A stretch of 64,000 nt of DNA from Phycisphaerae bacterium (GTDB lineage Bacteria > Planctomycetota > Phycisphaerae > UBA1845 > Fen-1342). Below, piece after piece: positions 26,569 through 50,038 of the stretch. Within the stretch, counting starts at the first letter, position 1. Every line of letters begins with the position of its first letter. The translations under genes and the position numbers were made by a program. The DNA lies in NCBI GenBank assembly GCA_963675745.2, contig CAXXWX010000019.1, positions 416,001 to 480,000 on the forward strand. Direction: 5' to 3'. Under the pieces are notes generated by a model. It searched no databases, was not told the origin of the DNA, and saw nothing but the letters and a program-made list of their open reading frames with translations.

Positions 26569-27006
26569 TCAAGAAGACAGCAGGTCAATGAAGGCGTCGA
26601 TGTCGCCGTTGTTGGTCCAGCCGTCGCCGTTGATGTCCGCCAGGTTGATATCACAGTCCGGAAACGCGGCGGTATACCCGGGCGGGTCGGTCAGGGCCAT
26701 CACGAACGGATCGATGTCACCATTGTTGACCCAGCCATCGCAGTTCAGGTCGCCAAGCTGGTAAGCCGGCGCTCCGGGCCAGAAGCCACCGGCCAGTTCA
26801 AAGTCGCCGCCCGTCATGGCCAGTGTACCGGCGTCGGGTTGGCCGACGGTGCCGGATAGCACAAAGTCGCCACCAGTGCTGTACATCACTCCGCCACCGT
26901 CAACCGTACGCCAGTCGAGGTTGAAATCGTCGGCGCGGGCCGTGCCGAGCGAAGCCGCCAGCAGCGCGATCAACGCTCCAGTTGTTGCGTGCGCGACTCT
27001 GTTCAT
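26569..27006 (-). CDS. Secreted protein with dockerin-like (duplicated EF-hand) domain
   Basis: Signal peptide, DWRTVDGGG...LSGTVGQPDAG...LAGGFW module, GDLNCDGWVNNGDID and ADINGDGWTNNGDID loops. Confidence 0.85.
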   Translation of the reverse strand: MNRVAHATTGALIALLAASLGTARADDFNLDWRTVDGGGVMYSTGGDFVLSGTVGQPDAGTLAMTGGDFELAGGFWPGAPAYQLGDLNCDGWVNNGDIDPFVMALTDPPGYTAAFPDCDINLADINGDGWTNNGDIDAFIDLLSS

Positions 27007-30000
27007 TTGGCACCTCCCGTCTGCGCGCCGGCCAGTTCCGCCAAGCGAGATTCGATGCGCGTCAAGCGGTCGCGCAGGTCGGTGATCTCTTCCTGTTGGG
27101 CGGCGAGCTGCTCGGATTGAGCAGCAATCTCGGCGTCCTGGTCCTGCACGATCTCGTAGAGGCCCTGAATTGCAGCAAGAGCCACGCCGGCCGTGTCCAG
27201 GCTTGCGATGTGCGTGTCATCCCGGCCGAGACCGAAGGCCGCATGAAAGTCCTGGGCTACCGGACCAAGGTGACGAACCGCCGAATCCTCGACCCGGTAG
27301 TTCCACGAGGTGATAGGGAGATCGGCGAGCACGTGCAGCAAGGCCTGCCGGTCCACGGGGGCGAAGTTCTCCTTGGCGTTGCGGTCTGAGCTATCGGTCC
27401 ACGCCCCCCCGGTGGTCAGATGGGCGCCTGTCGACGTTGTGATGAGGTCGCCACCGGTCACCCAGATGTTGATCCAGCCAGCGTCGTTCACGTTGAAAGC
27501 CGCGCCGCCACTGGCCCATACACGGAATTGGTCAGCGCGCTGGGAATCGAAGTAGGTGGCATCATAGGAATCGGCCCAGACGAACGCGCCTTCGTGGAGT
27601 GCTCGCGCACCTCGCCCGGCGGCAAAGCTCCAGTCACCTTCGGCCTTATTGCCGGCGCCGAGGGCGAAACCGCACGTGCCTTTGGCAGTGTTCTGTATGC
27701 CTGCTGCAAAACTGTACTTGCCTTTAGCCACATTCCACAGGCCTCCGGGCACGGTGGAGTACTCTCCATGGGCTGTGTTGTCATAGCCACCGCCGACCGA
27801 GGCGTACTGACCGTCGTTTGGATCACTCGGATTGGTATCGTTCGGATCGTTGGGGTCGCCGGCCCAGTTGTGGATTCCGCCGGCGATGGTTGCACACTCG
27901 CCGATGGCGTGGTTGTTTTCGCCGCCGCCCACTGTGGCGTTTGACGCCTTCGCCTCGCAGCCCTGTCCGCCGCCGACGGTTGACCAATTACCGAGGGCCT
28001 TGTTCAGGTAGCCGCCGGCTACGGTGGCGTCGGCGTTGGCTTCGTTGTCGCTACCGCCACCGATCGCGCCGCCATGTGCCGTGTTCCTGTAGCCTCCGGC
28101 GATCGTGCCGCCGAACGCTTTATTCGATAGGCCTCCCCCAACGGTGGCGTACTCGTCGTTCACGCTTGGGTTGTTGGGATCTCCGGCCCAGTTTGACTTC
28201 CCACCGGCGATCGTGGTCCAGCCGACGACGGCGCGATTGCCCACGCCGCCACCGATCGCTGACCGCTCGCCGCTCGCGATGTTCTGCACACCGCCACTGA
28301 CGGTGCTGGCGATGTGACTGGCGGTATTCTCCGTGCCGCCGCCAACGGTGGACCAAATCTGCGACGCCGTGTTCTGCTCGCCCCCCGCAACCGTCGCATG
28401 GTCATCCGCGGCCCAATTGTTCTCACCACCGCCGACAGTGGCATAGTCGGCATCGGCCAACGTGTCGTCTCCGGCGCGGTTATTGGCTCCGCCGCCGACA
28501 GTGCCGTAATCGTCCATTACTCGGTTCTGCCCGGCAGCCTGGCCACCACCGCTAATCGTCGCCCCAACGACGCCGTCCGTGACACTGTTGACGGCGTAAC
28601 CGGCAATCACGTTTGGAATGCTCAGTGTCGGCTTGAGTCGCAACACAGGGATCCCGTCCACACGTAGTTGCAGCGCAACGTGGTCGGTGGTCCCCAGATA
28701 ATTACTGTTCGGGTCGGTGCCCTGGTTACCCGTCAGGCTCCAGCCATTGCCGCCCGATGCCGGCTGCCAGGTGCCCGTACCCGATGAATCGGAGGTCAGC
28801 ACGTAGTCGGCCTGGGCGCCGGTTGGGAGCTCAATCCCGGTCATCCGCACCGTGCCGGCCACGTCCAGCTTGGTGGCGGGTAGCGTTGTTCCGATGCCGA
28901 TATCGCCGACAGCGTCTTCGTAGATGACCGAGTCGCCAATCACGGTTGCGCCAGTGAACTTGGCGAGGTAGTTTGTGGTTCCGCCACCACCGATGCCGCC
29001 TGTGCCGCCGCCGACCGATACGCCGTTGATGAGCAGATCGGTCGCGTTAACGGAGCCGTTTACGTTCATGCCATAGCCGGCCGGATTGTTCGTGTTGACG
29101 CCGACGCCGCCACCGGCCCGGATAAGAAACTGATTGTTGCCCGTCGAACTGAAGTCCGCGTCGATCGAGTCGGCCCAAGTGAACGTCCCGGTGTGGTTCA
29201 CCTTGGCTCGTCGTCCTGCCGCGAAGCTGTAGTCGGCCCATACTTCGTTCTGCTCCCCGCCGGGGATGGTGGCGGCCCGGCCGTTGGCCCAGTTGGTGTT
29301 GCCGCCACCGACCGCCGCGTACTCTTCATTTCCGCCTCCCACGGTGTTGTCATATCCTCCGGCGATGCTGCCGTACGGGCCCTTGGCGTAGTTGCTCCAG
29401 CCGCCGCCGACGGCTGCGTGCGGTCCTGCCGCGTTGTTCTGTCCGCCGCCGATCGTAGCCCATCCTTCGTTCGCTGTGTTGCTCTGCCCGCCGCCAATCG
29501 TGGCAAACGTGTCTGTTGCCGGGTCGGCGTCATCACTGCCGACCTCGTTGTTTCCGCCGCCGCCGATGGTGCCATAGTTGTCGTAGACGTGGTTATTCGT
29601 GTCGTTGGGGAAGCCGAGGTTCGTTGGCCCGCCGCCGGCGATAGTGGCGTAGTCGGCGGTGGCATGGTTATAGCTCCCGCCGGCGACGGTGGCCTTGACG
29701 CCGCTGGCGATGTTGTCAGCGCCGCCGCCGACTGTGGCACCGTCTACGTTGGCGAGGTTCCCGCCGCCTCCGGCTACGGTACTGACATCGGCGCTGGCGA
29801 TGTTACCCACGCCGCCGGCGACCACCGCGTACTCACCGCTCGCGATGTTGTTGGCACCGCCACCGACGGTGGCCTTCAACGCGCTGGCCTCGTTGTCCGC
29901 GCCGCCGCCGATGGTGGCGCCGTCTGCGGTGGCGTCGTTCCCGCCGCCACCCGCCACGGTTGCGATCACCTCCGTGGCGGTGTTGCCGCCGCCGCCGGCC

Positions 30001-30764
30001 ACAACCGCTTTCTCACCGCTGGCCTGGTTTTGCTCGCCGCCGCCGACGGTCGCCGCCTGATGACTGGCCTCATTGTCGATACCCCCGCCAATCGTGGCAC
30101 ACCAGTTGCTAGCGCGGTTGCCAGTGCCGCCGCCCACTGTGGCGTATTTGGCTTCATCCGGCGCGCCGACGTCATCGCCCGCCAGGTTATTCAAACCACC
30201 GCCAACCGTGCCATGGTGATCCGTTACGCGGTTGGTCAGACCGGCTTCGCCGCCGCCACCAACGGTTGCACCGACGACACCCGCGGTGGCGCTGTTCCCG
30301 CTGAAGCCGCCGATCAGGTTGGGGCACGTGACGTTCTGCTGTGTCCAGAGGCCGGGTAGCGCGAGCGCGTAAGGTGCCGGCGTCAGTTTCTGACGCGGGC
30401 TGAGTGTCGTATACGGCTGCGCGTCATTCGGATCGTGCGGGCTGCGCACTGAGATTCCCAGCCAGCGCGCGTCGCCCGTGAACACATCGGCGCCAAAATC
30501 GAGCTTGACCGTAAACAGGCCGCTGGTGACATTGTGATTGCCGAGTGTGATCGTCGCCCCCACGACGTAGTTGGGGTCCGCGCTGTTCGGGTCGGCCCAC
30601 AGCGTAAACTTGAGATCGGCGGTCCCGGTGAGCGGATTACCGCCCTGCTTGAGTTGCCCCTGGTAAGTGAAGGCCGTGCCCATAGGCGTTTGCGCCTGGA
30701 GCAGCCCAGGTGTGGCGATTGCCGCCATAACGAGACCAATGGTCAGAATCCGTGCCGCTGACAT
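27003..30764 (-). CDS. Secreted Gly-rich repeat fibre/adhesin with C-terminal peptidase S74 intramolecular chaperone domain
   Basis: AGGAGG RBS before ATG 30764, signal peptide, TAFTYQGQL domain, many ATVGGGxxNxA repeats, SSDRNAKEN...WNY...HLGPVAQDF...ALAAIQGL and terminal coiled coil. Confidence 0.88.
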   Translation of the reverse strand: MSAARILTIGLVMAAIATPGLLQAQTPMGTAFTYQGQLKQGGNPLTGTADLKFTLWADPNSADPNYVVGATITLGNHNVTSGLFTVKLDFGADVFTGDARWLGISVRSPHDPNDAQPYTTLSPRQKLTPAPYALALPGLWTQQNVTCPNLIGGFSGNSATAGVVGATVGGGGEAGLTNRVTDHHGTVGGGLNNLAGDDVGAPDEAKYATVGGGTGNRASNWCATIGGGIDNEASHQAATVGGGEQNQASGEKAVVAGGGGNTATEVIATVAGGGGNDATADGATIGGGADNEASALKATVGGGANNIASGEYAVVAGGVGNIASADVSTVAGGGGNLANVDGATVGGGADNIASGVKATVAGGSYNHATADYATIAGGGPTNLGFPNDTNNHVYDNYGTIGGGGNNEVGSDDADPATDTFATIGGGQSNTANEGWATIGGGQNNAAGPHAAVGGGWSNYAKGPYGSIAGGYDNTVGGGNEEYAAVGGGNTNWANGRAATIPGGEQNEVWADYSFAAGRRAKVNHTGTFTWADSIDADFSSTGNNQFLIRAGGGVGVNTNNPAGYGMNVNGSVNATDLLINGVSVGGGTGGIGGGGTTNYLAKFTGATVIGDSVIYEDAVGDIGIGTTLPATKLDVAGTVRMTGIELPTGAQADYVLTSDSSGTGTWQPASGGNGWSLTGNQGTDPNSNYLGTTDHVALQLRVDGIPVLRLKPTLSIPNVIAGYAVNSVTDGVVGATISGGGQAAGQNRVMDDYGTVGGGANNRAGDDTLADADYATVGGGENNWAADDHATVAGGEQNTASQIWSTVGGGTENTASHIASTVSGGVQNIASGERSAIGGGVGNRAVVGWTTIAGGKSNWAGDPNNPSVNDEYATVGGGLSNKAFGGTIAGGYRNTAHGGAIGGGSDNEANADATVAGGYLNKALGNWSTVGGGQGCEAKASNATVGGGENNHAIGECATIAGGIHNWAGDPNDPNDTNPSDPNDGQYASVGGGYDNTAHGEYSTVPGGLWNVAKGKYSFAAGIQNTAKGTCGFALGAGNKAEGDWSFAAGRGARALHEGAFVWADSYDATYFDSQRADQFRVWASGGAAFNVNDAGWINIWVTGGDLITTSTGAHLTTGGAWTDSSDRNAKENFAPVDRQALLHVLADLPITSWNYRVEDSAVRHLGPVAQDFHAAFGLGRDDTHIASLDTAGVALAAIQGLYEIVQDQDAEIAAQSEQLAAQQEEITDLRDRLTRIESRLAELAGAQTGGAK

Positions 30765-31393
30765 TTTCTGCCTCCTGTGTAGAGATATGCGTTTCTGAAA
30801 CGGGTTCCTGCGGGCACGCGCCCGATTGCATGGCCCGCGACGGGCAGCCCGGGCCCGGCACAGCTCGGCTCCGCTGCCCTCTGCATCTGCGCTGTTGGTG
30901 TGATCGACCCGGGCGAGGTGTGGCGGTCCGCGACGTGAATCGCGATCAAATGATGGTGACGTGGCGTCGCATTCCAGACCGTCACCCCTCGTCATGGTCG
31001 CCACGTCAACGAATAGGCCGGAGTGTAACCGCTCACATGGCTCGCTCGTACGCAGGTTTTTTCCAGGGGCGCCGCGTGGATTCCGGACAGGCGCTCTCCT
31101 GGATCGCCCGGGACAGCCGCGCGGTCCGATGCGTTTCAGGCCGGCACGCTCATCGTGTTCGCTCGGACGCCTGGGTACAATTCGACGGCGCTCTGCGGTT
31201 TGGGCGGTTGGGATGCGCAGTCTTTGCGGCGGGGGACAAGTGAGTGCTCGCCGAGAGGCTAAGACCCGGGCCAGGAGTAAAGCCACGGCCCGGTCGCGCG
31301 GCGTCCGCAACGAATCATGATTCCATGGAACCTAAGGGCCCTCACCTGACCTATTGATGGTGGATGCACGTGTTTCACCAACGGACCCGCAAT

Positions 31394-34703: not shown

Positions 34704-34854
34704 CCGATATCTCCTTGCTGGTCGCGTGAACCGGTCCGTAGTTTGGGGTATTTTATTGCGCCTCGCGTGGACCGGCAATTCAGATTCACCGGCTTCCCAG
34801 TTGTGATCCGGGGCCGAATTGCCGATAGAAACCCTCCTAGGGAGCAGTTCTACG

Positions 34855-35913
34855 GTGTCATCGCATTCGCTGCCGCGGACGTTGGAATGGGTCGGTGATG
34901 CCGACGGAGTTCTGAACCTGCTTGACCAGACGCGTTTGCCCGCCGAGGTCGAGACGCGCGTCTGCCGAACGGCCGAGGATGTCTGGCAGGCAATAAAGGT
35001 GCTGGCCGTGCGTGGTGCTCCGGCGATCGGGGTTGCCGCGGCGTACGGGCTTTGCCTGGGCACGCGGGGTGATCAGGATCTCCCCGCGGACATGTTCAAA
35101 GAGCGCGTCAGCCAGGTCGGTGATTATCTGTGCGCGTGCCGGCCGACGGCGGTGAACCTGGCCTGGGCGGTTCGACGGGTCTCGCGCGCGGCGTTCGAGC
35201 GCGAGACACCGGATGCGCGTGCGATGTGGAGCACGATGCTGGATGAGGCACACACAATAGCTCGAGAAGATGCCGAGATATGTCGGCGGATTGGTGAGCA
35301 TGGTGCCGATCTGGTGCCGGCCGGCGGCGGCGTTCTCACACATTGCAATGCCGGGGCTCTGGCGACGGCGGCATACGGCACCGCCTTGTCGTTACTTTAT
35401 ATCGCCCATGAACGGGGCACGCAGTTTCGCGTGTTTGCCGATGAGACTCGGCCGTTACTTCAAGGGGCGCGGCTCACCGCGTTCGAACTGGCGACGAGCG
35501 GCATCGACGTTACGGTGATCTGCGATAGCGTCGCGCCGACGTTGATGCGGAACGGGGACGTGCAGATGGTGGTCGTCGGGGCGGACCGCATCGCGGCCAA
35601 CGGTGACGTGGCCAACAAGATCGGCACATATGGATTAGCGGTGGCGGCGCGCCATCACGACGTACCTTTTTATGTGGCCGCTCCGCGCAGTACGTTCGAC
35701 CTCGACCTCGCTGATGGAGCCGCGATCCCGATAGAAGAGCGCGATGAAGATGAAGTGAGAATGGGGTTCGGTCGGTTGACGGTTGCTCCGGGCGCGCACT
35801 GCTACAACCCGGCATTCGACGTCACCCCGGCCGAACTGGTCACAGGAATCGTCACGGAAAATGGGCTTCTGAAACCGGTTTCGGCTGGTGAAATCGGACG
35901 TTTTTTCGGTTGA
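34855..35913 (+). CDS. mtnA: S-methyl-5-thioribose-1-phosphate isomerase
   Basis: LLDQTRLP, VRGAPAIG, RPTAVNL, THCNAGALAT, ETRPLLQGARLT, GADRIAANGD and NPAFDVTP motifs. Confidence 0.95.
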   Translation: MSSHSLPRTLEWVGDADGVLNLLDQTRLPAEVETRVCRTAEDVWQAIKVLAVRGAPAIGVAAAYGLCLGTRGDQDLPADMFKERVSQVGDYLCACRPTAVNLAWAVRRVSRAAFERETPDARAMWSTMLDEAHTIAREDAEICRRIGEHGADLVPAGGGVLTHCNAGALATAAYGTALSLLYIAHERGTQFRVFADETRPLLQGARLTAFELATSGIDVTVICDSVAPTLMRNGDVQMVVVGADRIAANGDVANKIGTYGLAVAARHHDVPFYVAAPRSTFDLDLADGAAIPIEERDEDEVRMGFGRLTVAPGAHCYNPAFDVTPAELVTGIVTENGLLKPVSAGEIGRFFG

Positions 35914-35918
35914 AGGGG

Positions 35919-35946
35919 TTGCATTGGGTCGAGAAGCACGTACACT
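35919..35946 (+). promoter_or_regulatory. Sigma70-type promoter for the small-peptide array
   Basis: TTGCAT-16 nt-TACACT just after the mtnA stop. Confidence 0.5.
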
Positions 35947-36129
35947 TCCGCACTGGTTTTGCGGCGCGGTCATCAGATCTGAGAGTGCCCGTACACGGGT
36001 GAGTTCTCCAGTTATAGATCTTGATCCGGCCGTGGGTATTTCACTTGGGACAGTCGGTGCGTGGCCGGCTGTGGGTTGATGACTCTTGGTTTGGGTTATG
36101 GATTGAGTTTCTCTGTGAGGAGGCTCACG

Positions 36130-36264
36130 ATGCAGCAACGGATTTGGTTGAAGGGCGCACTGATCACAATGACGATCGGTAGCCTGGCGGCGTTAGCTGG
36201 CTGGGGTGATGGTTGCCTCAATGCCACGATTCAGCGTCTATTGGTCTCGTACGCATTTGATTGA
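36130..36264 (+). CDS. Small secreted/lipo-peptide A (44 aa)
   Basis: GAGGAGG RBS; MQQRIWLKGALITMTIGSLAALAGWGDG-CLNATIQRLLVSYAFD. Confidence 0.7.
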   Translation: MQQRIWLKGALITMTIGSLAALAGWGDGCLNATIQRLLVSYAFD

Positions 36265-36319
36265 TCAACGGGCGTTGTTCGCACACTAGGTACTCAGGCT
36301 GAAAATGGGAGAAACACGC

Positions 36320-36469
36320 ATGAAGCGAAGCATCAAATTGGCGCTAATGTCGCTGAGCACCGGTGCGGTCGCATTGGCACTCGGTGGCTGTGGCGGCTAC
36401 AACTGGTTCTGGCGTATGCTGGGTGACGCGGTTGGCGACACCTTCGCGTACAACATTTTCCTGGACTAG
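36320..36469 (+). CDS. Small secreted/lipo-peptide B (49 aa)
   Basis: GGGAG RBS; MKRSIKLALMSLSTGAVALALGG-CGGYNWFWRMLGDAVGDTFAYNIFLD; below the ORF-track cutoff. Confidence 0.75.
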   Translation: MKRSIKLALMSLSTGAVALALGGCGGYNWFWRMLGDAVGDTFAYNIFLD

Positions 36470-36556
36470 GGCACGATCGTAGTTAATCGCCAGACCACGT
36501 CGGCCGGATATAATCAGAGCCGGCCCGGCTGTCTGGAGATGCAGAGGAGATTCCAG

Positions 36557-36727
36557 ATGAAGAAAGCGAAATTGGTAGCTCTAAGCGCTATGCTGCTTGG
36601 TGGCGCCACGCTGTTCGAAGGCTGCGTATCGGCCTTTTGGCAGGGCCTGTGGAAGACCGGGTTCCCGGCCAACAACCAGTGGATCGACCTGACGCTCGAC
36701 ATCCTGCGTGAGGATCTGTTGAGCTAG
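36557..36727 (+). CDS. Small secreted/lipo-peptide C (56 aa)
   Basis: GAGGAG RBS; MKKAKLVALSAMLLGGATLFEG-CVSAFWQGLWKTGFPANNQWIDLTLDILREDLLS. Confidence 0.78.
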   Translation: MKKAKLVALSAMLLGGATLFEGCVSAFWQGLWKTGFPANNQWIDLTLDILREDLLS

Positions 36728-36888
36728 ATTTACGTCAGGCGGGGACGGCAGCGTTGACGCGCTGCGTCTTCCGGTCGCACCCCGCGTTTGACTTCAGTCG
36801 TAACGGTCGGGACAACCACACGGTAGGGGGCTGTGGCGCTTGCGTCCAGTCCACCAACGAAACCGTAGTAAGAACACGGAGATAAGCC

Positions 36889-37053
36889 ATGAAGAAGGCC
36901 TTTTACGTCAAGCTGATCGTCGGCGGCGCGCTTTTGCAGGCGACGGCGTTTGCGAGCGGCGCTTCGTGCCTAGGTACTCCGGTACAGGGCGCGCCGATCT
37001 ACATCGCCTCTGGCAATCTTGTCACGGCGCTTCAGAACCTTCTCGGTACGTAA
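36889..37053 (+). CDS. Small secreted/lipo-peptide D (54 aa)
   Basis: GGAG RBS; MKKAFYVKLIVGGALLQATAFASGAS-CLGTPVQGAPIYIASGNLVTALQNLLGT; below the ORF-track cutoff. Confidence 0.72.
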   Translation: MKKAFYVKLIVGGALLQATAFASGASCLGTPVQGAPIYIASGNLVTALQNLLGT

Positions 37054-37118
37054 GCACCGACGTCTGCCAAGGCGGATGTGGTTTTGTCCCGTCACGCCGT
37101 GTAACTGACGTCGACGAC

Positions 37119-37156
37119 GCGGGGCGCGTTTGCCAAGCAGACGCACCCCGCTTTCG
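37119..37156 (+). terminator. Probable intrinsic terminator after peptide D
   Basis: GCGGGGCGCGTTTGC-caa-GCAGACGCACCCCGC followed by TTTCG. Confidence 0.6.
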
Positions 37157-37371
37157 TGCGCGCCCACCGCGCACCAAGACGCCAACTTGCGGATACGCGG
37201 CATCGTGCCGGCTCGCCATGGGCCTGTCAGGTTGACGTGATCCGCAAGCGAGCGTCGTCGCGGGTGCTTGAGTATCGCGAATGGCGAGCAGCCCCGGTGG
37301 GCTGCGTTCAGGGCGGCCAGACGCATTGGCGTGGCCGCCGCCGTCACCACCTTGTTGTGGCGCCACCCCCC

Positions 37372-37400
37372 TTGTTCGGTCAGCCGGGGTTGCGTATACT
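37372..37400 (+). promoter_or_regulatory. Sigma70-type promoter for peptides E and F
   Basis: TTGTTC-17 nt-TATACT. Confidence 0.5.
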
Positions 37401-37449
37401 TCAGCACGACCAACGCGGTCACTGGTGCATAGCGTTAGTGGAGCTCGTG

Positions 37450-37689
37450 ATGTCGCAAACCAGACGAAAACTGATGGTCTTGGTCTTGATTCTCGGAGCA
37501 GGCACGATGTTTCAGGCGGTCGGTTCCGGCTGCCTCCAGTATTACACTTACGCCGCACTCGAGGGTATCAACTTCTGCTCGGTTCTGAACTGCGACTCGA
37601 GTACGTTCTTCAACCTGTGCAGCCCGGTTCCTCTCCTGGGCCGATTGTCCGACCACGGCCGGGGGCGGCGGCTGATAGCGCGAGGTTAG
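37450..37689 (+). CDS. Small Cys-rich secreted/lipo-protein E (79 aa as read; probable frameshift near 37638)
   Basis: GGAG RBS; MSQTRRKLMVLVLILGAGTMFQAVGSG-CLQYYTYAALEGINFCSVLNCDSSTFFNLCSPVPLL... Confidence 0.72.
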   Translation: MSQTRRKLMVLVLILGAGTMFQAVGSGCLQYYTYAALEGINFCSVLNCDSSTFFNLCSPVPLLGRLSDHGRGRRLIARG

Positions 37690-37691
37690 TG

Positions 37692-37967
37692 ATGCGCAAG
37701 ACGTCTTCTTTTCGCGGAGTGCTGCTAACACTGGGACTATGCGCCGCCGGTACGTTGTGTCAGTTTGGCGGTTGCGGCTTCCCGGAGTTGACCAGTTTCC
37801 TCACGAGCATCAATCCGTGCGGCACGATCCTGGATTGTGACCCCGCTCAGTACACCTTTGCGACGTCCGGATACAGCGGTCCCGGCGTCGATCTGAATGT
37901 GGACATGACTTGCACGTTCCCGCCGTACTGCGGTACGGCTCTGGTTCCGGCTGACACAGAGCCCTGA
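37692..37967 (+). CDS. Small Cys-rich secreted/lipo-protein F (91 aa)
   Basis: GAGGT RBS; MRKTSSFRGVLLTLGLCAAGTLCQFGG-CGFPELTSFLTSINPCGTILDCDPAQYTF...CTFPPYCG... Confidence 0.72.
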   Translation: MRKTSSFRGVLLTLGLCAAGTLCQFGGCGFPELTSFLTSINPCGTILDCDPAQYTFATSGYSGPGVDLNVDMTCTFPPYCGTALVPADTEP

Positions 37968-38045: not shown

Positions 38046-41000
38046 GTGTTGCCCAGAAGCGCCCACCCAACAAACCTCTATGCTGCGCGTATCACATGCG
38101 CTGCGCTCGTCGCCATAACGCTGCTGCACCTTCAGATGGCGGCAGCCCTCTGGGACGAGACGGAGTTGCCGGCACCATCAACAACCGTCGATGCTCTATC
38201 GCCCCGCGCCACAGCGCTGATCCCCGACAACGTTGACGAATCCGCGGACGCCGGTGTTTTCACCAGACGATCGCATAGTCTGCCGGTCAGCAATGAAGCC
38301 GGGCTTCTGATTCAACAGTTGGATAGCGCGCTCGACGAACGCGAATATCGCCGCGCGGTCCGTGTCGCCGAGCGTCTTTTCGAGTTGCCCGACACGCTTG
38401 TTGCGAGTCGCGATGGCAAGGTGTTCTATCCGGCGTGGCGCCAGACTGCGGCGTTGCTCGATCAATTGCCACCGGAGGGAGTAGCGCTCTATCGGCAGCT
38501 CTTTGACGCGCGCGTCGCCTCACGGCTGACGCAGGTCGCCGCGCGGGGTGACCTTGTGGCTCTGCGCACATTGTTCGAGCAGCAGCGCCTCAGCGCGCAC
38601 TGGCCAGCCATCGGAACCGAGCTGGCGGCCCAGTCACTCGACCGCGGGGCCTGGCTCGACGTGGTGGACACCACCAGCCAGATGCTGAGTGCGGGGATTG
38701 ATGACAGTGTCATGCACGCGCAACGGGTGGTCGCGCTGACCAGGCTTGGCCGGTATGAAGCAGCCGTGCGTGAGCTTGACCGACTGGAACAACTCACGCC
38801 AGCGCAACATGATGCGGGCACCACTCACACGGCGGAGCTCGTCCGCGCGTGGTTCGACGCACAACGCGCGCCGCGGCGCGATGTGTCCGCGGCGTGGGGG
38901 ATGCAGCGGTTGTTGCACGCGGCGGTTGCGTGGCGCTGCGAGCTGTCAATGCCCGCGGGCTGCCGCGCCTGCCCCGGTTATCGCGAAATAGCGCATGCTA
39001 TTTCGGTGCTGCGCCGGCCGCCGCGCTACCAGGGCGTGCTCGAAGCCGGCATGCTTGTTGTGCGACGGTTTGGCGCGTTGTGGGGCATCAACGCGGACAC
39101 GCTCGTGACGCAATGGTGTGCGCGCGAAGCACTGCCCAGCCCGACAAGGGGGGCTGACGCAGCTCGACGATGAGGATGTGGCGACGGCGACACGCCTGGA
39201 TCGAGACGTCGCTCTCCTGTTTCGTGACGCGCACGCGCATGCCCTCTCCGGCGCGTTCGGTCAAGTCTACAGCATCGAGCCATTGGCGTTGGGTCCACCG
39301 GAGACTCTCCCGCCGGCCGTGGCGCAATACTGGAGCTTCGGCTCCGAGATATTTGCGAACAGGCTGGTTGCGCGCGACGCGCGGTCCGGTGAGACCACAT
39401 GGGAGCTTGGAGCCGATCCGACTCATGCGCTCTATGGCGCGGCGTTCCTTGACGTTCCCGCCGCCATCGGCGACATGCTCGTGGTGCCATACCAACGCCG
39501 CGACGAGTTACTCCTGGCCATGCTGGAGCCGGTCAGCGGTCGGCTGGTTGAGCGCTTCGTAGTCCATGGGTCGCCGACCAGTTTCACACCGCTTGGCGGC
39601 CAGTGCTTCGTGCTGGTTGAGCATCCCGTTGTGTACATTTGCACGGGCAACGGCGTTGCGGCGGCACTCCGCCTGCGCTCGTCACCTACGCGAGGCGCGC
39701 CGGCCCTTACGTGGGAGTGGGCCACGCATTACGCCGAACCTGAGCCCATCGACTCTGTCGCGACCTGGTGGGTGGCCGATGATGAGCACGATTCATGGCC
39801 ATCCGAGCGCCCGATATTGACGGATGAGCTGCTGATACTCCCGCCGTACGACAGTGACGAGCTGGTCGCGCTCAACCGTTTCGACGGCCGTGAACGATGG
39901 CGCGTGCCCTGGTCGGAGACCGAAATACTCGTCGGCCCGCTGCCGGGAGGTTTTGTGACGGCTGGGGACCGCGTGCGCTGTCGCGAATCCGCAACGGGCC
40001 GCACGTTCCACTGGCAATCGTTGCCAATCGAGCTGACGGGTCGTCCGGCACTCCTCGGCGGAGACGTCGTCGTGCCGACGCCGGACGGCCTGTTGGTGCT
40101 TGATGGCGCTACGGGGAAGGTCGTCGCCGACCAATGGCAGCCGCACGATACGCAGCCGGCGTCGAATCGAGAGGCATCCGCCAACCTGCTGGCTGCGACT
40201 GACGCGCTGTTTGCCGTCGGGCCGGACATGGTGCAGAAGTACCCCAGCCCGGCAGTGCGCAGCTTGTACTCCAAGGCCGGGTCTGAGCCGGTAACCGCCG
40301 CACGAGACAGGTACATCCTGGCGATGCTTGATGCGCTGGAGGGGGAGCTCGAGTCCGCCTGCGACCGTCTGCGCGACCTGGTGCCCGACGACCCCGGGCT
40401 TCGTGCCGCTCGTGACCGCCTGGGTACCAGCGTGCTGCTGGCGCTGGCCGATCGCGCGCCTAACGACGCCGAGCGCCTGGCGCGATTGCGCGAGGCTGCC
40501 GCGGCGGGGGCGGGCACGCGCGCCGGCGCCCTGTTGGGCGATGTGCTCGAGCAATCGGGCTTTCCCGAGGAAGCGTTGGCACATTTCAAGGAAATCCTGC
40601 TCAGCGCCCCGGCAGACCACATTTCGCCGGGGCCGGTGGCAGGCTATCGCGTCGCGGATTGGTTATATGCCGCGGGGCGCGTCGATTCACTCCTCGCGGG
40701 CATGTCGCCGGGTGATCGGCAGGCGTTTGTGGAAAACCTGGTTACGGACGCGATTGCCTCCGGGCGCCCGAGCAGGATGATGCGCGTATATCCGCTGGTT
40801 ATCGACGCCCAGCAGCGCGAGCGCCTGGGCCAGGCACTGGTGTTGTGGCAGCCGGCGGACGCGAACGATCCGGAAACAGGCACGCTGCGGCCTGAGTTGC
40901 TGGCGCGATACCTGCCCGACGGCGGCGCCGGCCGCGCGGAGGTGCCGGCGCGTGATACGCTCAACGGCACAGCGGCCGGCGTGTTCACGTCTGACCTGCA

Positions 41001-42309
41001 ACGCCGTTGGGTTGCCGAAGATCACGAACTGATTCTGCCACGTGGTGAAGGTGGCCCGCCGGACACTCTGCCGCTGCGCCATCTCGTTAACCAGCGCATC
41101 AGTCTGGTTACAACGGCGACTGGCCGCGTGCGAACCTCGACCGTCGATGGCGTCACTGGTGGTCGTGGTGTGGCGGAATCGCTCGCCGACTCGGCCCAGC
41201 ACGCGCTGTTCAGCAACACCGACATCTACTCACCGATCCCAGGCGCCTGGCCGGCAATTCGTCACCGCGATCTTGCCGCTCTGCCAACGGTCGGCGGACT
41301 GATCGCGTTTGGACTGGGTGCGGAGCCGGGTGGTGGGCAGCGTCTCTGGGAATATGCCATCCCGCAATGGCACGCCGACCAAGCGGGTTTTGCGCGGCAC
41401 GCCGTCGCGGGACCAGATGGCGTGTACCTCTTTGCGCAACCCGGCCGGCTGATTCACGTGGGATGGTCTGATGGCTTGCTGCGCTGGGAACGCGATCTGC
41501 CCGGCATCTCCTGCCGACATCTGGCGCTCGCCGCGGGGATGCTGGTGCTGACCGATGATGAGGGCCGCGCCTACACACTCGATCCGGCTCTGGGGCACCC
41601 GTTATGCAGCGTGACGGCGTTCCAGGATGTGCCCGCCGAAAGTGCCGTTGTAGGCGATCTTGTATTACGCTGGACCGACGAAGTACTGCGCGGCGTGGAT
41701 CCCCGGACGCTGGAGACACTCTGGTCGCGCAGCACGGGGGCGATCGGCGCCCAGCACGTCGTCACCGGGCGCGAGTGGTTCGCCTATCAATCACGCGTGT
41801 CCGGGATCTGGCACCTGCTTGACGTGCGCAACAATGAGCCACTGCCGGTCAATTTGCCCCACGACGTCGGCGCAGTCGAAGTGGTTGTCGCCACAGAGGG
41901 ACAGCTGCTGGTGGTCTCGAACGCAACGGGTATGGCGGAGGCGCCGAATACGGTGTATGAGTTGTCCGCCTATGATCCGCGCGACGGTCGCCAGCTATGG
42001 TCGCGCCGCCAGGTGTCCGCGACATCGCCAAACGCGTCGCAGCTATGCGGGCACCCGGCCTACATCGTCATCCTGCGCTGGAGCGACGGCCAGCCGGCCC
42101 TTGAGCTGATTGACCGGCACACCGGCGACACGGTTACGCCGACCGGTTGGATGAGCGAACCCGGCCGGGATTTGCTGCCGTTGGGCGAGTATTTCGGCCC
42201 CGGCGATGCGTCTCGTGGTAGATTCGTGCTCGTAACGTCAGACAGTATTATCGTACAGGCGCTGGGCCGTGTAATTGCGTTCGGCAGCGCCGCGCCAGGA
42301 CCACCGTGA
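38046..42309 (+). CDS. Large secreted TPR-like/PQQ-type beta-propeller repeat protein, split by an apparent +1 frameshift at 39148-39153
   Basis: ORFs 38046-39173 (signal peptide, helical repeats) and 39118-42309 (ARDARSGETTW, ALNRFDGRERW, VLDGATGKVV, AYDPRDGRQLW repeats) join in frame if one G of the G6 run is removed. Confidence 0.7.
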
Positions 42310-43409
42310 TGCCTCATGGTCGTATCCACACAATCGCCGCGCGCTCGTCTTGCGTGCTGATTTGGCTGGGCGCGGCCTGTGGCGCCATATGGCCATCCAG
42401 CGCGCCCGGCGGCCAGCCCGAGGAAAGCCAACGCCCGGTTCCACAGTCCGAGCCCGAGGGGATAACGCCGGAGATCAGGCACGCCATCGACACGGGTCTG
42501 GCCTATCTGGTTTCGACGCAGAACCGGGACGGGAGTTGGCGAACGCGCGGTCGCGCGGGCAGCTATCCGACGGCGATGACATCACTGGCGGGTTTAGCGC
42601 TGCTGGCCTCGGGCAGCACGCCGACCGAAGGGCCGCACGCACGCAGCGTCAGTCGCGCGCTGACCTTCGTGCTTGACAGCGTTCGGCGTGACGGGCTGAT
42701 CGCACAACTCGAGGAGGAATCTCACAACATGCACGGCCACGGACTGGCCATGCTGTTTCTCGCGCAATGTTATGGCATGGAGGAAGATCCGAGTCGCGGC
42801 GCGCGAATCAGACGCGCGCTACAGCAGGCGGTTGAACTCACCGCGCGCAGCCAGAGCGTTGCCGGTGGATGGCTATACACGCCGGATTCGCGCGGCGATG
42901 AAGGCTCGGTGACGGTGACTCAGGTCCAGGGACTGCGAGCCTGCCGCAACGTTGGCATCGCGGTGCCCAAACGCGTCATTGACAACGCGTTGGCCTATCT
43001 GGAGAAATCGCAAAACGACGATGGCGGGGTGCGCTACCAGGTCGATGATCATGGCCCCGGCCGGGCGGCGATAACGGCCGCCGCCGTCGCCTGCTGGTAT
43101 AACGCGGGCATGTATGACGACGTTCACGCGCGGCGTGCCTTGAGTTTTGCAAAGGACAAGCTGGACCCCGAGCGCGGCGAGACGACCGGTCACCACTATT
43201 ACGCGCATCTGTATTTTGCGCAGGTAATGTACCAGGCCGGCCCTGAGCAATGGCGGAGCTACTTCGCACCCATGAGCAGATATCTCCTTCAAAACCAGGC
43301 GAGCGACGGCTCGTGGATGGGGGATTCCGTTGGGCCGACCTATGGCACGGCGGTCGCATTGATTATTCTGCAACTGCCGCACAAGCATCTGCCGATCATG
43401 CAGCGTTGA
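42306..43409 (+). CDS. Prenyltransferase/squalene-cyclase repeat (alpha/alpha toroid) protein, probably exported
   Basis: [26 protein letters not shown] and [14 protein letters not shown]-type repeats; N-terminal signal-like segment. Confidence 0.85.
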
Positions 43410-43431
43410 TGCCGGCGGCGCGGAGGAACGC

Positions 43432-44520
<1,089 letters not shown>

Positions 44521-45390
44521 CGCGGTCGCGCGGCTCCGTGGCCTGCAACTCCGCGCGCGCACGATTGTGGCCGGCGCGCGTTCGGGCCTGCACCGCAGCG
44601 CCTATCGCGGCTACAGCGTCGAATTCGCCGAGCACCGCCAATACGTGCCCGGCGACGACGTGCGGCACATCGACTGGCGGCTGTTCGGCCGCAAGGATCG
44701 CCTCTACATCAAGCAGTACGAGGAAGAGAGTAATCTGGCGTGCCAGCTCCTGCTCGACGTCAGCGGTTCGATGTCGCACGGTAGCGGGCCGCTGAGCAAG
44801 TTCGATTACGCATGTTGTCTGGCCGCGAGCCTGGCGTGGCTGTTGATACACCAGCAGGACGCCGCCGGTCTGATTACCTTTGACCGCGATATTCGCGCGA
44901 CGTTGCCGACCGGCACGGGCACGCAGCATCTGGCGTCATTGATCGGCATGCTCGAAGCCGCACAGCCCGCCCAGCCGACCGATGTGGAAGCCCTGCTGCA
45001 CCGTCTGGCGCGGGAGCTGCGCCGCCGCTCGATAGTCGCGCTCTTCTCCGACCTGCTGATGCCGGCGGAACGTGTCGTGACGGGCGTCGAACATCTGAGC
45101 CATGCGGGACATGAGTTGATCGTGTTTCACATCATGGACGATGACGAGTGGCATCTGCCGATGCACGAGAATCTGTTGTTCGAGGGATTGGAGAGCGATG
45201 GGCATCTGCTGGCCGATCCACAGAGCCTGCGCGAGTCCTACCTCGCGGCCGTTGAGCGTCATGTCGTGCGCATCCGCGCCGCCTGCCTTCAGCACGGCGC
45301 CGATTACGTGCCGGTGAACACACGAGACCCGCTCGACCGCGTGCTCAGTGCCTATCTTGCTCGCCGGGGACGGCGAAGGGCGGGAAGCCG

Positions 45391-47643
45391 ATGATGGCGC
45401 CGGCGCTGATCGCGTTTGGCTTCGTCAATCCCCTGCTGCTGGCCGGGCTGGGGCTCATCGCACTGCCGATCATCATTCACTGGCTCGCACGCCGGCGGTA
45501 CCGTGTTCAACCATGGGCCGCGATGCAGTTCTTGCTCGAGGCCGAGCGGGAGAGTCGCCGGCGCCGGCACCTGGCGCAGTGGTTGCTCCTGGCCTTGCGC
45601 TGCCTGGTTATCGCGCTGCTGGCGTTGCTGGTCGCACGGCCGTTCTTCGAAACCCGGGCCAGCGCCGCGCTGCTCGCGGGTCCGCAACGCACCTGCCATG
45701 TGATCGTGCTCGACGATTCGGCTAGCTCGCAACTGCGGCGCGGGACGACGACCGTTTTCCAGCGCCTGCAAACAGCCGCGACGCGTCTGGTCGATTGGAT
45801 CAGTCAGTCGTCGGGTGACAGCGCCATTGCGGTCTACCGTACATCACGACCCGATGAGCCGCTATTGACGCCGAAGCAGTTGACCGCCGAGCGTCTCGGC
45901 CCGTTGCGGACAATGATCGAACAACTCGAGCCCACCACGCTGCGCGCCGCGCCGGCGCGCGTGATGCGCACAATCGCCGGGCAGGTTGCCGCCGGCGAGC
46001 AATACGATCGAACCACGATCTACGTGTTGTCTGACTTCCAGCGCAGCGACTGGATTGGTGATGATGCGAGCGAGGCCGTGTTCCACCCGTTGCGCGCGTT
46101 GGACGATCGCGCACCACGCATCCTGATGTTGACTGCCGATTCAACGGGGCGGGCCAACATCTCCGTGCAGACGCTTCGGCTCGAACGCCCCCATGCACTC
46201 GCCGGCATCCCGGCGCGGCTGCGAACTCGCGTGGCCAATCACGGTGCGCGGCCGATCGAGAAGCTGGTGCTACAACTATCGATTGATGATCAACCACTGC
46301 CCGCCATGCCGCTGCCGGTCATCGACCCCGGCGATATGGCCGAGACGGTGACGGAATTGAGCTTTCCCGCTGCGGGCCATGTTGTGGTGTCCGGCGGTCT
46401 CGAAGCGCCGGACGGATTCGATCTCGACGACCGCTATGGCCTCGCGGTCAGTGTGGAAGATTGTCTACCGGTGCTGGTGGTCAACGGTGCGCCGGATCTC
46501 GACGCGCGGCGCGATGAGGCCTATCTGTTGCGTCGGGCCCTGGCTCCACCCGGGCCATTTGCCTCCGGAGTTCGCCCGGACGTGATCGACGTCGAGCGGC
46601 TCAGCGGCACGGAGCTCGACCCATGGGCGTGTGTTCTGCTATGTAATGTCGGCCCGCTGCCCGATGACACAGCCGCGAGGTTGCGGCGGTACGTGGAGAG
46701 CGGCGGGGGGCTGGCGTTCTTCCTGGGTGACAACGCGCAAGACACGGCCGCCCTTAACCGCACGTTTGGCAGCGCCGGGCATGACTTGCTGCCCGCAGTA
46801 CTGACGGAGATCGTTGATGCTCCCGAGGGGGCGCAGATCGGCATGGTCAGTGCCGCCGCGCACCCGGCGACGGCGGGCTTCCCCGATGATTCCGACGCGC
46901 TGTCAGAGTACGTGAGCTTTCGCCGTTACGCGCGTTGCCGCATTGATGATGACACCAGTGACGCCACGGTCCTCGCGCGGTTCACTGATGACCGGCAGAC
47001 GCCGGCGCTGATCGAGCGGCGTATCGGCGACGGGCGTGTCGCCTTGTTCGCGTCCAGCGCGGATATGGAATGGAACAATTGGCCGGCATCGGTCGATGGC
47101 AGCTATGTCGTTGCGCTGCTTGATCTGGTGCAGTATCTGTCCCGCCGCTCCGAGTCGAATGGAACGCTGGTTTGCGGAGATGAGTTGGCGGTCGCGCTTG
47201 CACCGGCGCGTTACGATCCTTCCGTGCAGTTCAAGCCGCCAACCTATCCGGCCCGGCCCGCGGTTTCCGGCGGAGCGGTGAACGCCGGGATCATCGAGAA
47301 CGGTCGCATACTGTTCAGGGGGCCGGTTGCCGATCAACTCGGCACCTACAAGGCTGAGTTGGCACCACGGGTCGGTGGCGTCGAAACGCGGCCGTTGTGC
47401 GTAAATATAGACCCGCGCGAATCGGATCTACGCGTCGCCACCTCTGAGGAGCTCGAAGCGATGGTCGAGGGGCTGCCCCATGTGATCGCCCCGCTCGATG
47501 AAACCCTGCCGGATGGGAGTATTGAAGCGCGCGGTGAAATCTGGCGCGCACTTGTCATCGCAATCGTGTTTATGCTGATGCTGGAACACCTGTGTGCGTG
47601 GTGGTTTGGCCGCGCGCGCCGCTCGGCGCCGCATCGGCCGTGA
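45391..47643 (+). CDS. BatA-domain/vWA membrane protein
   Basis: FVNPLLLAGL..IALPIIIHWL.RRR.....WAAMQFL BatA N-terminus, LDDSASS MIDAS, LSDFQ, NIDPRESDL and C-terminal TM. Confidence 0.88.
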   Translation: MMAPALIAFGFVNPLLLAGLGLIALPIIIHWLARRRYRVQPWAAMQFLLEAERESRRRRHLAQWLLLALRCLVIALLALLVARPFFETRASAALLAGPQRTCHVIVLDDSASSQLRRGTTTVFQRLQTAATRLVDWISQSSGDSAIAVYRTSRPDEPLLTPKQLTAERLGPLRTMIEQLEPTTLRAAPARVMRTIAGQVAAGEQYDRTTIYVLSDFQRSDWIGDDASEAVFHPLRALDDRAPRILMLTADSTGRANISVQTLRLERPHALAGIPARLRTRVANHGARPIEKLVLQLSIDDQPLPAMPLPVIDPGDMAETVTELSFPAAGHVVVSGGLEAPDGFDLDDRYGLAVSVEDCLPVLVVNGAPDLDARRDEAYLLRRALAPPGPFASGVRPDVIDVERLSGTELDPWACVLLCNVGPLPDDTAARLRRYVESGGGLAFFLGDNAQDTAALNRTFGSAGHDLLPAVLTEIVDAPEGAQIGMVSAAAHPATAGFPDDSDALSEYVSFRRYARCRIDDDTSDATVLARFTDDRQTPALIERRIGDGRVALFASSADMEWNNWPASVDGSYVVALLDLVQYLSRRSESNGTLVCGDELAVALAPARYDPSVQFKPPTYPARPAVSGGAVNAGIIENGRILFRGPVADQLGTYKAELAPRVGGVETRPLCVNIDPRESDLRVATSEELEAMVEGLPHVIAPLDETLPDGSIEARGEIWRALVIAIVFMLMLEHLCAWWFGRARRSAPHRP

Positions 47644-47670
47644 AATACAGAAGGCGCCACTGTGCGCCTA

Positions 47671-47695
47671 CGGCCTGCGAGGCGCAGGCCGCTAC
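47671..47695 (-). repeat. GTAG-type REP element
   Basis: Reverse complement GTAGCGGCCTGCGCCTCGCAGGCCG is identical to 54285-54309. Confidence 0.7.
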
Positions 47696-47740
47696 GAGGT
47701 CCCGTTGCACGGGACAGTCAGGTTGAGATAAGGACAGCGC

Positions 47741-50038
47741 TTGCTCGCCGACGTTACACAGACGAGTCGCGATTGCATCGAGTTCGCCGCCGTGCCGACC
47801 GGTTGGCCGCGACTGATCGGTCTGGCGGTCACGGTGCTCGCGTGCTACGCCGTCGTTTGGCTGTATCGGCGCGAGAACCGTGAAGGCGCGAGCGTTGCCC
47901 TGCGCCTGACGCTGGCGTGCGCGCGTTGCGCGGTCGTGCTGCTACTGGCAACAATCGCGCTACGGCCGGTGCTGGTGACGTACGTTGAGCGAACACGCGC
48001 GGCCCGCGTTGCCGTGCTGGTGGACACATCGGCGAGCATGGACATAACGGATGTGGGGCAGGCGGATACGCGGCGTGCGCGCATCGAAGCTCTGCTGGGC
48101 GCCTCGGACGGCGCGTGGATCGGACGCTTGGCCGGCAATAACGAGACAGTGGTCTACGATTTCGCCGCAACCGCGCGACGGCGAGTGGAGGACACAACGG
48201 CGGCGCCGCCTGACGCCGGTCGCACCGACCTGGGCCTGGCCATCACAAGCGCCGTTGAGCATGCGGCGGGGCAGCCGATGGCGGCAATCGTCGCGTTCAC
48301 GGATGGTATTGTGAACCAGGGCATGAGCGCAGATGAGATTGCGTCACTGGCGCGCGTGCGCAAGGTGCCGCTGTACGTCGTCGGTGTCGGTGATGACACG
48401 GAGCCGCCAAACGTGCGTATGACGGGTCTAGCTGGTCCGTCGATCGCCCGCCGCGGCGATCCCTTTGAGATTCGCGTGGACCTGGACGCCGGGGGGGTGA
48501 CGTCGGCCGACCTCGAAGTTGTGCTCTCCGAATCCGGGCCGCACGAGCGGCATCTGGAAACACGGCGCGTGCGCTTCGATGCCGCCCAGACGCCGGAGCC
48601 GTTGAGATTCAGGGTGGATGCCGATAGCGCGGGAGAACTGGCCTATGCGGTTTCAGTGACACCGTTCGAGCAGGAGGTGTTCGCTGACGATAACCGTCGC
48701 GAGTTGGTCGTGCGCGTGCTTGACGAGCCGCTACGCGTGCTGTTGGTCGCCGGCCGACCATCATACGAGTACCGCTATATAACACGCCTGTTGGAGCGCG
48801 ATCGCACGGTCGAGTTGAGCTGTCTGCTCCAGTCGGCCGACGCGCAGGCCGTCCGCGATGGCGACCTGGGCATAGACCGGCTCCCGGAAGCGCCTGAGGA
48901 GCTCTTTGCATACGATGTCGTCTTGCTGCTCGATCCCGACCCGGCCGCAATCACGACCGACTGGCCTACCAATGTGCGGCGATTCGTCGATGAACTGGGC
49001 GGCGGTCTGCTGTACCAGGCCGGCCAACACTATGCCCCCCGTTTCCTGCACGATGACCGAATGCGCGACCTTGTCAGGCTGCTACCGGTGATTCCCGACC
49101 CGGAGGCGGACGACCGCCTGGGTCAACTGGGAACTTACCGCACGCGACTTGGCCGGCTGGCGGTGCCGGATGGGGCGGCGTCACATCCGCTGATCACCCT
49201 GGCCGCCGACCCGGCCACAAATGCCGCTATCTGGGCGGCATTGCCCGGTGTGTGGTGGACTTATCCGACGGGCCGCCTGAAGCCGCTGGCCGTGCCATTG
49301 CTCCAGCGCGCCGGCGAACCGGATGATGTGCTGTTCGCGCTCCAGCCGGTTGGCGCCGGGCGGACCGCGTTTATGGGGATAGAAAGCACGTGGCGTTGGC
49401 GCGCGACGGCCGAGCCGCACTTCGATCGATTCTGGGTCCAGTTGGTACGTTACCTGGCGCACGCCCGCCGGCAGAGCGCCAGCACGCGCGGCGCTATCAC
49501 GCTGGCGCGCGACGATGTTGCCGTCGGCCGGCCACTGGAAATCGAGGCGCGCCTGCTGGATGAGCACTTCAACCCCTGGCACGAGACACAGGTCATCGCA
49601 CTGATTGAGATGCCGGGTAGCGATGATCAATCGGTGACGCTGCGCGCAATCCCCGGTCGAGCCGGCTGGTACTCGGGCCACTTCCTGCCGCCCCGCGCGG
49701 GCTCCGGCCTGATCCGCATATCGTTGCCGCGCGCTGCGCCAGCCGAAGGGCAGAGCGACGCGCTGGTAAAGCACTTTCGCGTGCGACGGCCGGACATCGA
49801 AATGCGCGCGCTGGCAATGCAGGCCGCGGCATTGGAGCAGCTCGCCACACGCGGCGGCGGCCGGTTTATGTCGCTCGCCGAAGCGGTGGACCTGCCGGAG
49901 CTGATCGAGTCGGCGGCCGAGACTCACGTTGACCGTGGTCGCGAACGCGATCTGTGGGATAACCCCTGGGTGCTTGCCTTGCTTGCAGCGTTACTGGGTA
50001 CCGAGTGGACTCTGCGCCGGAGGAACCAGTTGCTGTGA
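47741..50038 (+). CDS. vWA plus glutamine-amidotransferase-like membrane protein
   Basis: Two N-terminal TMs, VDTSASM MIDAS, FTDG, RVLLVAGRPSYEYRY, TWRWR...FDRFW, C-terminal LWD..W...LLGTEWTLRR; start uncertain. Confidence 0.8.
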   Translation: MLADVTQTSRDCIEFAAVPTGWPRLIGLAVTVLACYAVVWLYRRENREGASVALRLTLACARCAVVLLLATIALRPVLVTYVERTRAARVAVLVDTSASMDITDVGQADTRRARIEALLGASDGAWIGRLAGNNETVVYDFAATARRRVEDTTAAPPDAGRTDLGLAITSAVEHAAGQPMAAIVAFTDGIVNQGMSADEIASLARVRKVPLYVVGVGDDTEPPNVRMTGLAGPSIARRGDPFEIRVDLDAGGVTSADLEVVLSESGPHERHLETRRVRFDAAQTPEPLRFRVDADSAGELAYAVSVTPFEQEVFADDNRRELVVRVLDEPLRVLLVAGRPSYEYRYITRLLERDRTVELSCLLQSADAQAVRDGDLGIDRLPEAPEELFAYDVVLLLDPDPAAITTDWPTNVRRFVDELGGGLLYQAGQHYAPRFLHDDRMRDLVRLLPVIPDPEADDRLGQLGTYRTRLGRLAVPDGAASHPLITLAADPATNAAIWAALPGVWWTYPTGRLKPLAVPLLQRAGEPDDVLFALQPVGAGRTAFMGIESTWRWRATAEPHFDRFWVQLVRYLAHARRQSASTRGAITLARDDVAVGRPLEIEARLLDEHFNPWHETQVIALIEMPGSDDQSVTLRAIPGRAGWYSGHFLPPRAGSGLIRISLPRAAPAEGQSDALVKHFRVRRPDIEMRALAMQAAALEQLATRGGGRFMSLAEAVDLPELIESAAETHVDRGRERDLWDNPWVLALLAALLGTEWTLRRRNQLL

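Follow-up and report, generated by a model that had tools for sequence, protein, structure and literature searches.

A conserved set of six tiny genes for likely lipid-anchored peptides behind mtnA in one order of Planctomycetota

The envelope biology of Planctomycetota is debated. Lipoproteins such as LptM, CsgF and BamE are accessories of outer-membrane (OM) channels, and the known cargoes of Slam translocators are folded beta-barrel proteins. In the TolC-YbjP system a single OM channel has a small lipid-anchored partner of its own, YbjP, which contains a globular domain (PMC13095208). The entericidins EcnA and EcnB, and relatives such as Agrobacterium Atu8019, are described as precursors of ~45-55 aa with a lipoprotein signal and a short mature part, and their genes stand in tandem in E. 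coli (PMC7296081). DAG-RiPPs are short ribosomal peptides that pass through the lipoprotein pathway; they carry canonical lipoboxes and CPxCGxG or EGKCG cores and are encoded next to an MNIO (PMC13056109). The main text of a genomic survey of the class Phycisphaerae mentions neither lipoproteins nor small proteins (PMC11266412), and in our literature search, which covered few subscription papers, no published description of the genes reported here was found.

The window, a 64,000-nt stretch of contig CAXXWX010000019.1 of a Phycisphaerae bacterium, holds six ORFs on the plus strand, A to F, which are real, unannotated genes. When they were re-read from the sequence, all six lay where the preliminary description had placed them, each with a ribosome-binding site of the GGAG/GAGG type and the Cys assigned to it, and the mature lengths of 16, 26, 34 and 28 aa given for A to D were correct. 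Gene A (36130..36264, 44 aa, Cys29) has a hydrophobic 16-aa helix after the Cys, gene B (36320..36469, 49 aa, Cys24) an acidic amphipathic helix with GDxxGD, and gene C (36557..36727, 56 aa, Cys23) two predicted amphipathic helices round a G-aromatic-P turn with an acidic end; gene D (36889..37053, 54 aa, Cys27) is the variable member. Genes E (37450..37675, ~74 aa, putative lipidation Cys28) and F (37692..37967, 91 aa, predicted lipidation Cys28) each have four further conserved Cys, which in F sit in NPCG, CxP, DPxC and PxxC; the leader of F has two extra Cys besides Cys28. GC3 is 0.60-0.77 in A-F, compared with 0.69-0.77 in four long neighbours. The mtnA-like gene in front of them (34819..35913, plus strand; IF-2B family, Pfam IF-2B E 1.7e-83) is probably a conserved upstream neighbour and not a functional part of the array.

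As read, E is 79 aa long and ends at 37689; the G run at 37638-37640 probably contains one inserted base. The alternative frame ends in DCPTTAGGGG with a stop at 37673-37675, and since it supplies a C-terminal Cys that is kept in 42/42 aligned orthologues, we take E to be ~74 aa. A near-identical DNA run, which leaves 37638-37640 uncovered, shows single-base indels nearby at 38015 and 39162, so that the assembly probably carries indel errors. The second of these falls at the junction of adjoining TPR-like and PQQ-repeat ORFs (38046-42309), which are probably one gene of ~1400 aa interrupted near 39162 by an indel of one base, because the DNA run shows a deletion and relatives have one ORF (in one relative a single gene of 1518 aa). 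Elsewhere in the window we noted a cluster of prenyltransferase-repeat, MoxR, DUF58 and BatA/vWA genes (42306-52161) and, by eye, on the minus strand (22748-26073 and 27003-31310), two SPFH/band-7-like membrane proteins in tandem and a Gly-rich repeat protein of 1400 aa whose tail looks chaperone-like.

The six genes had been described as one tandem array. Judged from sequence, they are instead two units, A-D and E-F, both preceded by a conserved sigma70-like promoter of their own, as indicated by separate promoter-like sites and by the loss of A-D as a block with E-F retained. All control sites lie on the plus strand. A terminator-like hairpin from a consensus scan marks the end of mtnA (35875..35897) and is followed by P1, the predicted promoter of A-D (TTGCAT-16-TACACT, 35919..35946), which was located by aligning 26 intergenic regions; the pattern TTGCA-16-TACACT occurs in 24/27 gene-A leaders, with a spacer of mostly 16. 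The A-D transcript is predicted to start about 10 nt before a conserved GGCGCGGTCA motif (35963..35972), which lies near the beginning of the ~175-nt 5' leader of A; with a relaxed pattern, a motif of this GGCGCGG(T/C)C type follows P1 in 27/27 leaders, across families. It could be a protein-binding site or a stability element. No Rfam family matched the 5' leader of A, and a structured leader RNA was not supported, as RNAalifold returned no pairs on a poor alignment, the z-score was -1.67 and pairing of the motif beat shuffles (p<=0.05) in 3/22 leaders. A second terminator-like hairpin from the same kind of scan follows D (37060..37079), and P2, the predicted promoter of E-F (TTGTTC-17-TATACT, 37372..37400), was read from the window sequence and has a weak -35. 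Under a strict pattern, a TTGxxx-17/18-TATACT-like site is found upstream of E in 13/25 relatives; in ten family loci a P2-type site precedes E by 42-56 nt, and the gap between E and F measures 16-76 nt in 22 loci.

A search for mtnA in 61 genomes yielded 30 loci, 29 of them from family relatives. Array genes stand directly behind mtnA in 28 of these 29, the first being A in 22 and E in 6, with none in 1, as labelled by HMMs built partly from the same loci; the conservation expected in syntenic relatives is thus borne out. The other families of the order contributed 20 loci, of which A-C occur in 6, E-F in 12 (both in 2) and none in 4; in one of the genomes behind these last four, E-F lie elsewhere. 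E-F lie away from mtnA in G026 and G040, and in G040 an E-F-G set divergent from pilB/pilT-like genes was seen by eye. A-D are patchy across the order, which we presume to be UBA1845. F is single-copy in 29/29 genomes of the order and occurs in 3/4 genomes of one sister family outside it, in which E-F pairs were confirmed; it was found in 0/167 other genomes of the class searched, and the sole match in 300 further genomes of the phylum had three stops. Every named homologue of F is a hypothetical protein, and most come from Phycisphaerae, strain RAS2 included. Full-length C is present in 28/36 family genomes and 7/24 others (E below 1e-12), and among 1.84 billion representatives it had 64 matches, of which 61 were short proteins and three, all long, were discarded as repeat artefacts. 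D has its Cys shifted or missing in some relatives, is duplicated in some and absent in others.

Neighbours were clustered at 41 loci, all fetched via mtnA, with Pfam run on 28 neighbours. mtnA, by which the loci were fetched, is the only neighbour common to all 41, and no enzyme, transporter, sensor, immunity or channel gene is consistently linked to A-F in this set. The downstream TPR/PQQ-prenyltransferase-MoxR-vWA cluster was rejected as a partner, being present in 12/41 loci and in family f1 only. Several lineages have small genes of their own. In families f5, f6 and f7 (L063, L096, L105, L106, L108, L110, L114) a ~53-aa peptide with the same leader directly follows F; in four loci (L031:1067-1228, L033:828-998, L034:1493-1636, L043:1260-1409) a Cys-helix peptide is encoded next to a TPR-SPOR gene, ~2.3 kb ahead of the mtnA end; and in L059 (three copies), L065, L066, L068 and L060 lineage-specific Cys-rich or duplicated small genes, for example three near-identical genes of 48-50 aa, replace or extend A-D. 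On these comparisons, A-F are fixed, old orthologue groups in a fixed order.

Against the closest congener (G001), dN/dS is 0.24 for A, 0.21 for B, 0.10 for C, 0.25 for E (codons 2-63) and 0.24 for F, beside 0.18 for mtnA; D has 0.70 against G001 and 0.25 against the congener G003. Eleven pairs from other lineages have values of 0.05-0.46. By these estimates, obtained by simple counting over few codons, A, B, C, E and F are under purifying selection, in agreement with the ratio below 1 that had been anticipated, and D drifts. Three RNA libraries, all from one study, contain contigs 95-100% identical to the window that cover 36039-36899 and bridge A-B and B-C. Five of the six coding differences listed are synonymous and the one insertion is in frame; a distant RNA contig has four more differences, three of them non-synonymous. 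Because DNA can occur in such libraries, the contigs are taken as a weak hint of transcription only. They leave out E, F and the downstream gene, with mtnA matched by distant contigs only, and since contigs cannot rank expression no ranking is drawn.

The first Cys is present in all 156 orthologues of A, B and C (24/24 each) and of E and F (42/42 each), and it stands behind a basic n-region and a hydrophobic h-region. This is the layout on which the preliminary description based an Lgt/LspA signal, and the genome encodes Lgt, LspA and Lnt, so that part of the claim stands; the Lgt/LspA reading itself falls short of being established, as the lipobox has the canonical form [LVI][ASTVIG][GAS]C in only 23/156 orthologues (A 5/24, B 4/24, C 1/24, E 4/42, F 9/42). 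Long candidates, a set drawn with a pattern that excludes charged residues and allows Gln, are canonical in only 51/121, and therefore the lipoboxes of this genome appear generally lax. The residue at -1 is G, A, S or N in 137/156 orthologues (A 24/24, B 15/24, C 24/24, E 38/42, F 36/42); it is G or S throughout A and C and often Gln or Thr in B. The leaders are 18-33 aa long and widely variable in sequence, with a hydropathy of 1.9-2.1 compared with 2.5 in the long candidates. A hydrophobic residue with Gln or Glu within the last ten leader residues is found in 76/156 orthologues and in 2/121 long candidates; a stricter motif occurred in 0/164. The lipid A enzymes LpxC and LpxK are also encoded, and on that account a replacement of LPS was rejected. 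Lipidation of A-F is likely from their sequences, and we infer it along with their location and partners.

Mature A consists of 16 hydrophobic residues with Asp at the end in 21/24 orthologues. Mature B and C are acidic and amphipathic, with a moment above that of shuffled sequences in 21/24 B and 22/24 C, and mature E and F are acidic. The group profiles match one another via the leader; in hhalign comparisons no similarity was detected among mature A, B and C, and that between E and F was weak (12%). Since the mature parts are unmatched except for this weak E-F similarity, A-F are better seen as distinct conserved parts than as a variable repertoire, and the idea of a diversified family was not sustained: each gene has its own orthologue group and only the leader is common. 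The statement that they belong to no described family held up, as Pfam offered no family for any of the six proteins up to an E of 1, NCBIfam gave nothing relevant for 14 proteins and a PDB sequence search nothing significant. The LptM model hit only the signal of B, below cut-off. In the ESM Atlas, F recovered only unnamed Planctomycetota clusters, with recognition below the tool's mark, and C no named cluster; AlphaFold2 of F alone was unusable (pLDDT 60, pTM 0.26).

An HMM of the leader alone, run against this genome, found matches of 100 aa or less in 8/10 of the best non-array hits compared with 18/68 of the lower ones (p 0.002), and ~15 further short Cys-helix genes with the same leader are dispersed in the genome. 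Neighbour conservation was examined for five of them, four having been picked for a channel-like look. The counts include the own locus of this genome and were made at thresholds of 3-6 bits, the background rate of upstream peptides being 129/2996 long ORFs at 5 bits and 21/2996 at 8 bits. H (loci L150-L176; in G000 at C15:166557-167853) lies directly upstream of a CsgG-family lipoprotein gene in 23/30 loci (23/27 family loci), K of a DUF481 barrel gene in 10/16 and L of an OEP/TolC gene in 12/15. I and/or J are directly upstream of a 674-aa exported protein in 21/30 loci from five families, and in 16/17 when its full-length orthologues are counted. A tatC link of the peptide at C3:169006 was rejected, having been seen in 1/30 loci, that of the own genome. 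Most dispersed members adjoin genes other than channels, among them signal peptidase I, an SH3 protein, PTS EIIA and TauE, and a convincing upstream peptide is lacking at ten other OM channel genes (four OEP, five secretins and BamA). The member at G000 C3:72334 (L077) is divergent from signal peptidase I. Taken together, the same-leader genes beside OM channel genes suggest an overlooked set of cell-envelope parts.

The model of the 674-aa protein has TPR-like helices and a 14-strand barrel (pLDDT 90.5) in a fold that resembles BcsC, OmpG and CymA. It has no Pfam barrel match, and it matches over 330 columns a protein bearing SlipAM (PF04575). Its conserved unit, one or two micro-lipoprotein genes with this Slam-like gene (G000 C1:130385-132909, L180-L203), is a candidate type XI-like translocon in Planctomycetota. 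The leader Gln of peptide I is invariant (16/16). When the TPR-barrel (642 aa, 29 rows) and I (40 aa, 16 rows) were predicted as a complex, the score was 0.01, which is informative neither way; hhalign gave the mature parts of B and I, and of B and J, match probabilities of 3-4%.

The explanation that we favour, and to which we give about an even chance, is that A-F are housekeeping lipid-anchored helical subunits of OM complexes. Envelope subunits had been among the roles first proposed for them, and that idea is kept here by way of the same-leader genes upstream of OM channels, although no channel is linked to A-F. In this scheme the constitutively made precursors would be exported by Sec, receive diacylglyceryl from Lgt, be cleaved by LspA and acylated by Lnt, giving lipopeptides of 16-64 residues that would reach the OM; there the neutral-to-acidic helices of A-C, held by lipid, could pack together or against a barrel or pore. 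E and F would fold by two disulphides each and act as a fixed pair, with A-D as an optional, stoichiometric, co-expressed module on top of this universal pair. We favour the OM-subunit role because order and orthology are fixed, dN/dS is near that of mtnA and F is single-copy; because the promoters are conserved, the Lgt, LspA, Lnt, LpxC and LpxK genes are present and the -1 residue is mostly G, A, S or N; and because same-leader genes lie upstream of CsgG-family, TPR-barrel, DUF481 and OEP/TolC genes. The RNA contigs add a weak hint, and there is a precedent in TolC-YbjP (PMC13095208). Against it count the lack of an OM channel gene linked to A-F themselves, which are tied to the channel-linked peptides by the leader only, the selection of four of the five examined neighbours for their channel-like look, the ten other OM channel genes with no such peptide, the few canonical lipoboxes and the frequent Gln or Thr at -1 in B. 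A bolder version, which we consider decidedly unlikely, would have the Gln leader direct single lipidated helices into the OM along a sorting route peculiar to this lineage. There A-D, with E-F as cap or scaffold, would build an all-alpha pore of micro-proteins or a complex that shapes the membrane, and CsgG-, TolC-, DUF481- and Slam-like channels would be plugged or completed by the dispersed members. If true, it would amount to a second, helical building system for the diderm outer membrane.

Among the alternatives, A-F as surface lipopeptides (a coat, adhesive layer or filament) crossing the OM via Slam-like or CsgG-like exporter channels is conceivable but unlikely. Such a route would suit the amphipathic helices of B and C, the position of H before a CsgG-family gene and that of the I/J pair before a barrel whose kinship with SlipAM runs via a single intermediate protein, and the small lipoprotein Atu8019 is described as surface-exposed and adhesive (PMC7296081). 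The distribution speaks against it, since G004, G012 and G013 have the barrel gene without full-length C and G003, G005, G009 and G014 have C without a barrel match, and A-F are strongly conserved, whereas surface proteins usually vary. TolC- and DUF481-type channels, too, are not known to export lipoproteins. The Gln-bearing leader could instead be retained, so that the peptides are inner-membrane helical hairpins, perhaps diacylated at the Cys, with the G-x-x-L/F-Q face as the packing surface of a small membrane complex. This seems quite improbable to us. The enrichment of the Gln/Glu feature over the long candidates, the invariant Gln of peptide I, the short ORFs brought to the top by the leader model alone and the poor lipoboxes all fit, but leader length and sequence vary widely, G or S holds the -1 position throughout A and C, the partners linked to off-window members are OM proteins, and four conserved Cys, as in E and F, would be at home in the periplasm or at the surface.

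The preliminary description had also offered precursors for a modifying system, or signals. Lipoprotein-signal RiPP precursors do exist (PMC13056109), and Cys-Pro-type motifs stand at the ends of E and F; these roles nevertheless lost ground and are very improbable, since only mtnA is consistently linked to the array, no gene for an enzyme, a transporter, a sensor or immunity is conserved beside it, no MNIO (PF05114) was found in the 91% complete genome, the A-F consensus has no CPxCGxG or EGKCG motif, and order-wide conservation is unlike that of kin signals. An entericidin-like lytic toxin and antidote set, which size, layout and tandem genes would recall (PMC7296081), is extremely unlikely given that Pfam yielded no entericidin up to an E of 1, and given the core single-copy distribution and the block loss of A-D, which leaves no partner stranded. 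Class III pilin signals combine a short, polar leader that is cut after Gly with Glu at +5 and a hydrophobic helix beyond the cleavage site. Type IV/Flp pilins were rejected: the hydrophobic stretch of A-F precedes the Gly motif, Gly-to-Gln spacing varies and no pilin profile matched. A flagellar link was set aside as uninformative, flagellin being present in 60/61 genomes; nearly every order genome among the 61 relatives has at least four flagellin-domain matches.

These genes add an unannotated class of ~15-20 tiny core genes per genome in one Planctomycetota order, for which F offers a compact marker. They suggest either that conserved substrates are overlooked when lipoproteins are predicted by a canonical lipobox, or that there is a variant route of processing. 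They also give a testable rule: one leader type and single helices in repeated, conserved pairing with unrelated OM channel genes.

Compared with the systems described at the outset, and by the tests given above, A-F belong to neither the entericidin, the YbjP-type nor the DAG-RiPP families. They resemble the entericidins in precursor size, lipoprotein signal, short mature part and tandem genes (PMC7296081), and differ in forming six distinct orthologue groups in two units with no sequence match, in a non-canonical lipobox with a leader Gln, in two Cys-rich members and in being confined to one order and its sister family. DAG-RiPPs are alike as short ribosomal peptides of the lipoprotein pathway, but A-F have none of their canonical lipoboxes, MNIO or cores (PMC13056109). 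The off-window I/J locus, with its TPR and 14-strand barrel gene beside lipoprotein genes, recalls Slam/type XI, although its peptides are helices of 30-45 aa, the barrel is related to SlipAM only via an intermediate and A-F are unlinked to it. Off-window members are conserved in front of genes for channels of the kind that YbjP partners, but YbjP has a globular domain where peptides of the A-F type are single helices (PMC13095208), and one leader type here serves several unrelated channels, with A-F themselves having no adjacent channel. By analogy, A-F would work most like entericidin-sized lipoproteins and channel accessories such as YbjP.
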